Of a stretch of 64,000 nucleotides of DNA, positions 21,280-24,147 are shown piece after piece. This DNA is from Candidatus Obscuribacterales bacterium (GTDB lineage: Bacteria > Cyanobacteriota > Vampirovibrionia > Obscuribacterales > Obscuribacteraceae). The stretch is taken from positions 160,001 to 224,000 of the forward strand of contig CBDDIJ010000003.1 of NCBI GenBank assembly GCA_965228855.1, read 5' to 3'. Numbering within the stretch: position 1 is the first letter of the stretch; each line of letters begins with the position of its first letter. The translations under genes and the position numbers were made by a program. The notes under the pieces were generated by a model. The model was given only the letters and a program-made list of their open reading frames with translations, was not told the DNA's origin and searched no databases.

Positions 21280-21819
21280 TTACTCGTTCAAACCTTGCGG
21301 GCTTTCTGCAAACTCGCGGGCAGTAATAGTCGTTGTCCAGGGTCCGGTGAGACCTGGCACATTTAAGATGAAAGGTGCGTTGTATGTTATCAATGGCTCA
21401 AGACTGCCTGTAACAGTAGTTTCCATCGCATAGATATATTGTTGGGTGTTTGCCGGCGTAGTCAGTTTATTTTCAAAGCGAGACACCGCTTGAGTATTGA
21501 TATCGGTGGCGAGGATATCGACATCGATATTGTTGACTGTGATGCCGCTGTACTTACTTACGAACTGATTTACTGCAAGAGGTGCAGCGGCTATTGCGCT
21601 TGGCTTGCCGGTGCTGCCTGTTTGAAACGTATACGACGTTGCCGCTGCGTGGGCGCCATCGCGAGCCGCTTCAGCGAGCATCGCCCAGCGCAGTCCAGTC
21701 GTGCCTAAATTGATAATAGGAAAAACGAACATAAAGAACAGGACCATCAACACGCCTGGCATTTCCGCGATTGCGTTTCCATGGGCTCTTCTTTTCTCAT
21801 TTAGATGAACGTTTTGCAT
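21280..21819 (-). CDS. TadE-like pseudopilin
   Basis: RAHG|NAIAE, TM, AARDGAHAAA. Confidence 0.85.
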   Translation of the reverse strand: MQNVHLNEKRRAHGNAIAEMPGVLMVLFFMFVFPIINLGTTGLRWAMLAEAARDGAHAAATSYTFQTGSTGKPSAIAAAPLAVNQFVSKYSGITVNNIDVDILATDINTQAVSRFENKLTTPANTQQYIYAMETTVTGSLEPLITYNAPFILNVPGLTGPWTTTITAREFAESPQGLNE

Positions 21820-21951
21820 ATGTTGAAATCTTGAAAACGGCGGAGGATTTACAAGTGGAATCTACCAGGGCGTCCATGCTGCGCTCTGATGAAAAATATA
21901 TGTAGTGAATATGCGGACGGGTGTCGATGTGGATCTTTTGGCTGTATGACC

Positions 21952-22027
21952 ACTATAAGTTCAGTTCGTGAAGCGTAAGTGAATCGAACGTGAAAACAGC
22001 GTGAATCCAAAGTGAAGAGTGCGTGAA
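21952..22027 (-). promoter_or_regulatory. 6x TTCAC-N6 array plus -10 TATAGT, promoter of the Tad pilin operon
   Basis: plus-strand GTGAA at 21968, 21979, 21990, 22001, 22012, 22023; ACTATA at 21952-21957. Confidence 0.85.
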
Positions 22028-22202
22028 ATTCGCGACTTTTAGATTTTATCTGTCCTACTGCAAATTCTCGTAGATTTCGAAAACATGCTACAGCACTGCC
22101 TTTTGGGGCGCGATATATTGAATTTCTATCGCATCTTTATCGCTTAGATCGTCTTGCATTAATGGTTAGACGAGACTTATGATGTTGGCATAGAAGTTAC
22201 AC

Positions 22203-22398
22203 ATGGTTCATACACGAGTCGCTCCGATGCACAAGGCGCGCAATACTTGCGCCTCGAGCTAAGAAGACTAGAACCATCGCCGAAAGAAAGCTCAATGCCC
22301 TGAGGCTTCTGGACGCAACTTCCGCAAACATGGATACATACAAAATAAAGTGCGATGGTGACACCACCAGCGGTATCATGCTGCTGTAAGCTGTCGCA
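22203..22398 (+). ncRNA. structured 5' leader candidate of the small TPR gene
   Basis: ATGGTTC/GAACCAT enclosing AGGCGC/GCGCCT; TGCGA/TCGCA enclosing GGTG-ACAC-CACC and AGCGGTA/TGCTGCT, ending 2 nt before GGAGG. Confidence 0.4.
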
Positions 22399-22410
22399 TA
22401 GGAGGTAACA

Positions 22411-22734
22411 ATGACACGCGAAACAGATTATCTGTCCCTTGGTGAGCAATTCGAAGAAAACGGAAAGTATTACAAGGCTGAGAGACTGTATAAAAAAGCT
22501 CTCGACCTCAAATCAAAAACCGTAGATCCGATGAGTTCCGAACTCGTACCTTATCTCTATAACCTCGGCATGGTTCAAGCAGCGCTTGATAAAACAACCG
22601 ATGCATACAGAAACCTTGGTAAGGTTATTGCAATCTTGCTCAAAGAACACGGCGAAGACTTCGCGGATATCAAAGAAATCCGCGGCGTACTCAACAGCCT
22701 GACCGAAAGCCAAGAACTGGTAGCAAACGCTTAA
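22411..22734 (+). CDS. small TPR protein
   Basis: AGGAGG SD; GKYYKAERLYKKAL and LYNLGMV..A kinesin-light-chain-type TPRs; 107 aa. Confidence 0.88.
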   Translation: MTRETDYLSLGEQFEENGKYYKAERLYKKALDLKSKTVDPMSSELVPYLYNLGMVQAALDKTTDAYRNLGKVIAILLKEHGEDFADIKEIRGVLNSLTESQELVANA

Positions 22735-22754
22735 GTAAGCGAAAAGAGAGAGAA

Positions 22755-23029
22755 GTGAACCTCGTCAACCACACCAGACGATGTTCACGGAGTGGAGAAA
22801 ACGAAGTTTGTTGCATGACACCACGGCAATCTTCGTCGAGTAGAGAGAACGCCACGTTGCGCACCAAGACGCGGTCGTTCAGGCAGATAGACAACTAGGC
22901 TAATCTACGTTGTCCGGGCGGATTCCTCAGATCCGCGAAGAACGGTTTCCCAGCTCCGTTCGGAATGCGAATCGCATTCATTTAATCGGGGTTCGCTGGA
23001 ACCCTGTAAGTAGCGAATCAGCCTTCGCT
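22755..23029 (+). ncRNA. multi-hairpin structured RNA candidate (3' UTR or sRNA)
   Basis: nine consecutive stem-loops fill the intergenic gap; G-U pairs favour the plus strand. Confidence 0.55.
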
Positions 23030-23031
23030 CT

Positions 23032-24147
23032 TTAGACTTTGGCCGTGAGAAGCGTCGCCAGATTGAACGCAAGAAAATTGCGCACTATCTTCTCCAGTGG
23101 CGAGCTGTCATAAAATGCATTGTGCTCGGTACGAAACAACTCTTCGACTGTTTCCTCCTCGCCCCTTGCCACCTGTACTGATACCACTAATTCGCTGCCG
23201 ACGATTTCTAATCGGAAGCGCATGGTTAGCCGGGCATCAGGCACTAAGCGATAATTGAACTTGACGAAAGCGGTGTACACCGGACGCAAAACTTCTTTGC
23301 GGTATCCGGCTTCCATCTCGCGGAAATCCGGTTCTAGTGCAGTCGCCAGTTCTGAGAAAACCATCTGCAGACCGTTGAAGGCGGTTTGCAATCGCATCTC
23401 ATGCGGCGTAACTGTTTGTGATTGAGTGGAAGAACGCAGACCTTTGAGAAGCTCATCAAGACTGGATGCGGACAGTTCTTGTTTGCTGTACGCTTTGAGT
23501 CTTTCGAGATCCTCGATCAGGTCTTGAGATGTTTGATATCGTTCAGCGTGCGACCATTGAAAGGCTCGATCGAAAATTTGATTGACGAGAAACAGTCTGT
23601 TTTGCGAAACCTCCAACAGTTTATTCCGCACAGACGGCCTTTGATGGGGCATGCGACCTTCGCGGTCCTTTAGTGTGCCTGGTTCTTCGCGAGTCAAAGT
23701 GTAAAAGAAAAGTCCGGCGACAGCTGTGATGTCGCTCACTCGATCGTTGCGCTCAGCCACACGGATGTTTACCTGATATTCCGGAAGCTCGAGAAATGCG
23801 TTGGCTTTGCCGTGTCCATTGCTGTCGCCGTTTCCGTTTGTGTAACTGCTGATCGAAATAGGAAAACTAAAATCTATCAAGACCGGGCGTCCATCAGACA
23901 TAACGATCTGATCAGGTCGTAAGTGCGAGTGCGTCATATTGCGCTCGTGGCAGTACATGAGAACGTTCAGAATTCGAAGACACATCTCAGCAGCCTCGTC
24001 GAGTGAGATCGTCCCTTTACTCGCGAGGTATGTATCGAGTGTCAAAAAATTCGTTTGTTTTTTCTGCATTAAGTGAGTGAGCGCTTTGCGAAACACAAAA
24101 GCGTGAACAGGGTTCCTTATAGTATATGTACCCTCGATGGTTTGCAT
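23032..24147 (-). CDS. degenerate protein kinase-like protein (probable pseudokinase)
   Basis: C-lobe recognisable (HSHLRPDQI, LIDF, LPE, SDITAVAG, ERYQT) but the catalytic Asp and a canonical N-lobe are absent. Confidence 0.75.
   Translation of the reverse strand: MQTIEGTYTIRNPVHAFVFRKALTHLMQKKQTNFLTLDTYLASKGTISLDEAAEMCLRILNVLMYCHERNMTHSHLRPDQIVMSDGRPVLIDFSFPISISSYTNGNGDSNGHGKANAFLELPEYQVNIRVAERNDRVSDITAVAGLFFYTLTREEPGTLKDREGRMPHQRPSVRNKLLEVSQNRLFLVNQIFDRAFQWSHAERYQTSQDLIEDLERLKAYSKQELSASSLDELLKGLRSSTQSQTVTPHEMRLQTAFNGLQMVFSELATALEPDFREMEAGYRKEVLRPVYTAFVKFNYRLVPDARLTMRFRLEIVGSELVVSVQVARGEEETVEELFRTEHNAFYDSSPLEKIVRNFLAFNLATLLTAKV

Follow-up and report, generated by a model that had tools for sequence, protein, structure and literature searches.

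The window, a stretch of 64,000 nucleotides from the genome of a Candidatus Obscuribacterales bacterium (referred to here as G000), carries a small TPR protein gene and a convergent kinase-like gene, with an array of nine hairpins (H1–H9) between them. The features of the locus are as follows.

22350..22399, + strand: structured 5' leader of the TPR gene, with an outer helix, unpaired GACACCAC and an inner hairpin, ending just before an AGGAGG ribosome-binding site.
22411..22734, + strand: gene for a 107-aa TPR protein (TPR_12, E 1.2e-6; TPR_1, E 1.4e-6) with the C-terminus LVANA; the array lies directly behind its stop codon.
22735-23031: TPR/kinase spacer, 297 nt between the convergent genes.
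22744..22789, + strand: repeat unit 1, a purine linker and H1 (22755-22788), with 6 bp, a pyrimidine mismatch, 5 bp and a 10-nt loop with CACCA.
22790..22837, + strand: repeat unit 2, linker GAGTGGAGAAA and H2 (22801-22836) in the same register as H1; the loop has CACCA (CACCG in the sister species, G007).
22838..22882, + strand: repeat unit 3, linker GAGTAGAGA and H3 (22847-22880); the loop has CACCA.
22890..23029, + strand: H4–H9, six short hairpins without a match to the repeat-unit model.
23032..24147, − strand: convergent kinase-like gene, with a partial Pkinase match (PF00069, E 3.6e-6, profile positions 84-153 of 263).

H1 starts 20 nt past the TPR stop codon and the array ends 2 nt before the stop codon of the kinase-like gene. 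Active kinases carry HRDLKP and DFG motifs. The translation of the convergent gene has HSHLRP and DFS in their place; the catalytic motifs therefore look degenerate and the gene likely encodes a pseudokinase. Between 21800 and 24450, no sigma-70-like promoter was found on the + strand, and a scan for canonical intrinsic terminators (a GC-rich stem, then at least 5 U in 8 nt) returned five terminator-like sites, none of them within the array. Profile searches of G000, which is 95% complete, detected PNPase and six RRM matches over the cut-off, one of them on the small contig C4, and single-RRM proteins are among the proteins of the genome. The same genome gave nothing over the cut-off for Rho and no match for CsrA (PF02599; controls match in 3 of 14), and Hfq was not found. 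Contig C4 (for example at 2951-53300) contains very AT-rich stretches unlike the remaining genome as well as a 219-aa RRM frame, and may be contamination. Reads of one RNA run (X17) cover only 22300-22520, at a depth of 2, and do not extend into the array; they speak neither for nor against a transcript of it.

All nine hairpins that the sequence-only reading had placed between 22755 and 23029 fold there, each with −5.6 to −13.0 kcal/mol when taken alone. The + strand of 22740-23040 reaches −104.3 kcal/mol (z = −3.42), a value attained by none of 100 shuffles, compared with z = −2.03 and three of 100 shuffles as good for the − strand. The CACCA starts at 22772, 22819 and 22862 were confirmed, and both purine linkers (GAGTGGAGAAA and GAGTAGAGA) are present between H1 and H3. 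The exact 46-nt period that had been described applies only to the chosen stem starts; the CACCA motifs are spaced by 47 and 43 nt, and the units, measured from linker to linker, are 46, 48 and 45 nt long (46, 47 and 45 in G007). Similarly, CACCA is the apical motif of H1–H3 in G000 but H2 reads CACCG in G007 and in the related locus L033, leaving CACC as the motif common to the three hairpins across all three sources. In the minimum-energy fold of H2 the CACCA is partly paired, and in a fold of the whole G000 mRNA H3 and H9 lose out to long-range pairings.

How unusual the array is was assessed against genome-wide controls, for which genes were called by a crude longest-ORF script and in which some spacers hide tRNAs or small genes. 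At least nine local hairpins of −5 kcal/mol or better occur in 5 of 485 intergenic regions of 250–350 nt (the array included), in 3 of 300 coding windows and in 1 of 300 shuffles, where the commonest count is six. Hairpin number alone is only a moderate excess: the array is unusual, not extreme. By local-fold z-score, its spacer ranks 34th of 211 convergent spacers of 150–450 nt; among the higher-ranked spacers listed, most owe their score to one or two long hairpins. The statement that the array belongs to no recognised RNA family was borne out, with no Rfam 15 match at the gathering threshold in the whole window. With the threshold relaxed to E = 10, 21800-23100 gave two matches that fall well short of the cut-off, msr (E 2.8, 23027-23071) and snoU61 (E 6), and no others, and 11 related loci likewise gave no Rfam match. 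Literature searches on Obscuribacterales non-coding RNA and on Melainabacteria small RNA with hairpin, in which subscription papers were mostly uncovered, returned no report and no mention of Vampirovibrionia.

The stems of H1–H3 had been described as different in sequence. Alignment against shuffles shows them instead to be homologous, diverged tandem copies of one 45–48-nt unit. In G007, units 1 and 2 align with a score of 36 against 5 ± 6 for shuffles (0 of 2000 as high), units 2 and 3 with 41 (0 of 2000) and units 1 and 3 with 26 (3 of 2000); the corresponding alignments in G000 are matched by 2–7 of 2000 shuffles. Average column identity is 70%, and an ungapped repeat finder did not detect the units. 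Units 1 and 2 are built in one register, in which six pairs are followed by a pyrimidine mismatch and then by five or six further pairs below a CACC loop, and the internal mismatch sits at the identical place in both. Across seven unit rows the CACC is invariant (7/7) and the stems covary, with double-sided changes in 6 of 12 pairs, a figure that is inflated by deriving the structure from the same rows. H4–H9 differ from G007 by 5.4%, with one stem change, kept as U·G; behind H7–H9 lie U/A-rich tails of non-canonical form.

Comparison with the sister species shows how the pairs have fared. The two genomes have a median coding identity of 94.3% and are 18.5% divergent at fourfold-degenerate sites, close to the 14.8% divergence of H1–H3. 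Ten of the 79 pairs of the array are touched: three by double changes (two of them adjacent, and possibly one event), five by single changes that keep the pair, one by a change that breaks it and one by a gap, such that eight of the nine changed, ungapped pairs still pair. H1 accounts for two double changes and two G·U changes. All five single-side changes exchange a Watson–Crick pair and a G·U pair on the + strand, and would give A·C on the − strand. Random placement of the same substitutions yielded on average 0.42 double changes (P = 0.006) and 6.8 broken pairs (P = 0.003). For an empirical control, spacers were compared with 800 kb of G007, to which 214 of 291 aligned over their full length. 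In the 213 besides the array spacer, 1579 of 2323 changed pairs were broken (68%) and double changes numbered 80; run through the identical pipeline, the array had 11 changed pairs, 3 of them broken and 3 double. Because its pairs are kept, its single changes are biased to G·U on the + strand and 68% of changed pairs break in other spacers, these comparisons indicate that the fold of the array is under selection, on the strand of the TPR gene. The proposal of a folded RNA structure is thereby upheld and assigned to the + strand, on a covariation basis of two allele groups (G000 against G007, L033 and the read sets X5 and X6) plus the paralogous units. Reads X5, probably DNA, and X6 carry the G007-type allele. 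A joint at 22924 in X4 was rejected as a variant, as GATT followed by AATC resembles, we infer, a restriction–ligation junction.

DNA and model searches located the array in 2 of the 104 genomes of the family, G000 and its sister G007; the model search, with 59 candidates scored per genome, gave two further weak single matches (E 0.06 and 0.09). Within G000 the array is single-copy by blastn and by model R1 (150 of 3005 first-look candidates scored), only its own three unit copies being returned, and it is not a dispersed REP-like repeat. A metagenome scan yielded three loci from 319 candidates, one with the array. Viral contigs gave 29 pattern matches, none above 19.7 bits, against 47–60 for true units; these were taken as chance, each being single and selected by the pattern itself. 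What the sequence-only reading had called a candidate new structured RNA is thus a selected structure without an Rfam match that is not dispersed, and it falls short of a new RNA family, being present in two family genomes.

Neither the structure nor the loop motif, whose absence from relatives the sequence-only reading had named as a refutation, is found beyond the sister species. Elsewhere in the genus the gene pair is retained in all six remaining genomes, and their spacers (126–306 nt), which open with a strong GC-rich hairpin, do not align, form different hairpins and lack CACCA. Among more distant relatives, two loci (L010 and L013) have spacers of 62–80 nt with a single, bidirectional terminator-like hairpin, one long stem with A/U flanks, and another (L009) has no spacer between the genes at all. 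Since the orthologous spacers are hairpin-rich yet non-aligning, single-hairpin or absent, structure persists at the site while the sequence turns over. The most economical history would be that this lineage lost a single strong GC-rich hairpin, in whose place duplication and accretion produced a longer tail. The array is best read as a young, two-species 3' UTR elaboration, and is not a conserved or widespread RNA family. In L039 (2828-2995) and L040 (2828-3133) the spacers are low-complexity, self-similar hairpins, with five TGATCT copies in the former and nested GACTTG/CTCG repeats in the latter, which suggests that, species by species, local duplications and inversions enlarge the site.

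Further observations concern repeats elsewhere in G000. A dispersed tandem repeat family of TGCAAA...TTGCA palindromes, BIME-like and unrelated to the array, occurs on contig C5 (885550-885950 and 1605050-1605400) and contig C2 (145550-145900, 1043750-1044100 and 1489300-1490100). A second, MITE-like element is dispersed over convergent spacers of contig C2 (202783-203181, 254664-254985, 443626-444051, 767522-767813, 836438-836764 and 942449-942858) and is bounded by CTACTAT and ATAGTAG, which enclose a TTTGGCTA...ATGAC/GTCAT...TAGACAA hairpin. Of all 5-mers, ACTAT and TACTA show the strongest strand bias downstream of stop codons.

The TPR gene also has a structured 5' leader (22350-22405), with counterparts in L037-L045, L050 and L063-L076, made up of an outer helix, unpaired CACCAC/CACUAC or CCAC and an inner GCGGU hairpin. 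RNAalifold on 11 leaders gave no useful consensus, as distant rows slip by three bases, and the seven close rows were then counted: double changes occur in 4 of 14 pairs, and 87.8% of cells are paired, a level reached by none of 500 shuffles. The motif GGTRNYAC is present in the leaders of 12 of 25 lineage groups, compared with 1.4% of background leaders, and the leader has no Rfam match. It is more widely conserved than the array and is a candidate cis-regulatory motif. A regulon of the leader palindrome was sought and rejected: 28 of 338 GGTGNCACC sites are intergenic, with no enrichment and no coherent gene set. A small TPR paralog (contig C2, 1194900-1195300, − strand; HMM E 6.7e-17) has a similar leader, with an outer helix, unpaired CCGACCAGA and a GCGGC-UUCG hairpin. 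Further upstream, at 22297-22323 and before the leaders of L003-L009 and L011, GCCCTGA and ACTTC separated by 14–18 nt are kept in the genus and in two other genera, and could be an alternative-sigma promoter. At the other end of the gene (22717-22731, +; alignment A3), the proteins of the family finish in a non-polar tail that mostly closes on Ala (LVANA, MAANA, LAVSA, LKITA), with variable residues before it; this tail resembles a C-terminal degron. The tmRNA reading frame of G000 ends in RAAA.

The array is best explained as a cis-acting 3' UTR of the TPR mRNA that ends and protects the message opposite the convergent gene, a reading to which we assign a probability of about 0.6. It is read as the TPR 3' UTR because the + strand is selected, H1 follows so closely on the stop codon and no + strand promoter-like site was found; its position is where relatives carry one strong hairpin or a bidirectional terminator. 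The array would be transcribed from the TPR promoter as part of the TPR mRNA, and would have arisen through duplication and accretion in place of the single GC-rich hairpin seen in the rest of the genus. Each hairpin may serve both as a partial transcription stop and as a roadblock for PNPase against 3'-to-5' decay and, with Rho not found in this cell, the row of hairpins would give a ladder of 3' ends. The CACC loops and purine linkers would mostly be inherited from the duplicated unit, and may also be protein landing sites. REP hairpins are described, in the accessible part of the source, as 3' UTR terminator-stabilisers that correlate with higher expression between convergent genes (10.64898/2026.03.23.713779). 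Against the 3' UTR reading, the canonical U-tract scan accepts not one of the nine hairpins, relatives manage with one strong hairpin, and the reading does not account for the retention of the CACC loops, linkers and mismatch in three units whose stems covary.

If read on the − strand, H1–H3 would be tandem intrinsic terminators of the kinase-like mRNA, with the reverse-complemented purine linkers supplying a U/C tract behind each. These tails are indeed pyrimidine-rich and repeat with the unit, the − strand folds better than most shuffles (z = −2.0) and double changes are strand-neutral, but the five single-side stem changes all become A·C mismatches there, the terminator scan calls none of H1–H3, and the tails are UC repeats rather than U runs in a genome where Rho was not found. 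We consider this very improbable, although the array may still have a secondary role on the − strand; Rho loading on its UC tracts was rejected, with no Rho over the cut-off in G000. Still less probable is a neutral by-product, in which duplication and template-switch correction of quasi-palindromes keep the arms complementary in DNA and the RNA has no function. It would sit well with the near-fourfold-degenerate divergence of H1–H3, the complete turnover of the spacer between species and the two adjacent double changes, which may be a single event; correction in DNA, however, predicts Watson–Crick pairs without strand bias, where the single changes are all G·U on +, and the internal mismatch of unit 1 is kept at the corresponding position of unit 2. 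The least probable proposal is that the C-rich loops are base-pairing seeds for UGGUG in the TPR leader or early coding region (a 5'–3' fold-back) or in other mRNAs. UGGUG is present at 22356 and 22440, and whole-mRNA folds of G000 and L033 join H3 with codons 10–14 and the start codon. The duplex of H3 with its own initiation region (−26.6 kcal/mol) is nonetheless matched or beaten by 84 of 600 unrelated regions, and those of units 1 and 2 by 348 and 469 of 600; a synonymous change in the sister locus L036 breaks the H3 duplex without compensation, and the own 3'/5' duplex is in the top 5% for only 1 of 35 orthologs.

In the main rival to the 3' UTR reading, the loops of H1–H3 would show CACC to an RNA-binding protein, for which the single-RRM proteins are candidates, and this protein would recognise CACC/CCAC in the TPR 5' leader as well. 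The array would recruit or titrate it, either in cis or after processing into a 3' UTR-derived sRNA, much as CsrB does with a different motif. The invariance of CACC over covarying stems in all seven unit rows is consistent with this, as is the finding of three hairpin-loop CACC motifs within 150 nt of a stop codon in only 1 of 800 sampled 3' regions, possibly the array itself. CCAC/CACC is present in the leaders of 15 of 25 lineage groups, compared with 23.6% of 1655 background leaders, a contrast in which kin are not independent and the motif was picked after inspection. In a distant clade of homologs (L081-L090), each 3' UTR contains 2–5 CACC, most of them unpaired, with several lying in terminator loops; placing CACC as a label on the homolog tree requires three changes. 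The six RRM matches in G000 would supply readers, and these are plausible by analogy with the cyanobacterial protein Rbp3, which, in the part of PMC12232666 that is available, binds folded segments near stop codons; the Rbp3-bound Synechocystis 3' stem-loops resemble the array in lying beside stop codons, and differ in being single rather than tandem and in their reported motif, UUNGN rather than CACC. Other evidence points away from such a protein. When orthologous 3' regions are clustered by sequence, 17 of the 27 clusters lack CACC, all other genus members included; the motif shows no strand enrichment in 3' regions genome-wide (0.51 vs 0.53 per 150 nt), and three or more copies occur in 54 of 2042 ordinary 3' regions. 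Duplication by itself would already give the units a common loop. The leader motif belongs to a GGTG-N-CACC palindrome, possibly a DNA site, and marks no clear regulon, and neither CsrA nor Hfq was found in G000. We judge this reading unlikely. Its extension to an Obscuribacterales CACC circuit is quite unlikely: there, an RRM protein would read CACC/CCAC in the TPR leader and be recruited or sponged by a 3' CACC-loop array of the same mRNA, which would have had at least two origins, as a hairpin triplication in this lineage and, in L081-L090, as a CA-rich tail with CACC terminator loops. In that clade (L081:2840-2960, L083, L085-L088 and L090), an anti-Shine–Dalgarno-like CCUCC stands just past the stop codon of the TPR homolog in 6 of 7 cases. 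Beyond it come an unpaired CA-rich stretch with several copies of CACC, then a hairpin, and last a terminator that in most cases carries CACC in its loop; this 3' UTR looks like a 3' UTR-derived sRNA or a protein-binding tail.

Several known systems were compared with the array. Type III antitoxin arrays consist of tandem repeats that are nearly identical and precede a toxin gene transcribed together with them; this assignment was rejected, the units having 70% column identity and lying downstream of both flanking genes. TIGR arrays adjoin a gene for a Nop-domain Tas protein and use their variable halves as guides. Here the neighbours are the TPR and kinase-like genes, the variable halves pair with each other, and the Nop domain (PF01798) was not found in G000 with a profile that may miss Tas. 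Type I toxin mRNAs fold back through conserved 3'–5' pairing over the initiation region, whereas the corresponding duplex here is at background level and is lost in L036. Integron attC sites, considered from the AAC...GTT stem ends, carry RYYYAAC/GTTRRRY boxes, and were dropped when these went unmatched. The loops of ANTAR sites have 6 nt, with G at positions 1 and 4. The loops of H1 and H3 (and of H2 in G007) are 9–10 nt and C/A-rich, unlike the ANTAR dual-hairpin site, which the accessible portion of PMC4347634 describes as two tandem stem-loops.

CsrB and CsrC (the Rsm group) resemble the array in repeating one short motif on hairpin loops, and carry 18 and 9 copies of it, respectively, according to the same portion of PMC4347634, against three CACC copies here. 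Their loop motif is GGA, which is present in none of the nine array loops; H1–H3 carry CACC instead. A stand-alone, CsrB-like titrating sRNA is not supported: no + strand promoter of its own, no CsrA and no Hfq were found, and the array is confined to two sister species. REP/BIME elements such as E. coli REP325 are closer, being, as far as the available part of the source goes, several short imperfect hairpins directly past a stop codon, often between convergent genes and varying among close relatives (10.64898/2026.03.23.713779). The array, too, consists of extragenic imperfect hairpins just past a stop codon and would by analogy have the same job, partial termination and decay blocking. It differs in being single-copy instead of dispersed and multi-copy, and in that six of its nine hairpins do not match the unit. 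REP325 termination is also partly Rho-dependent in that account (10.64898/2026.03.23.713779), and Rho was not found in G000. The bidirectional intrinsic terminators of L010 and L013 occupy the same site between the same convergent genes, with one long stem and A/U flanks against the nine short stems, no canonical U tract and 297 nt of the array spacer.

The reach of the array itself is small, because it is not a conserved RNA family. On the best reading, it provides a small, clean example of a bacterial 3' UTR rebuilt within one genus, from a single terminator-like hairpin to a selected nine-hairpin tail with covarying duplicated units. Should one protein bind the CACC loops and read the leader as well, this would amount to a new RNA–protein regulatory motif, in a lineage without the usual RNA chaperones. 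Read as a 3' UTR, the array bears on 3' end formation in a little-studied sister group of the cyanobacteria where Rho was not found.
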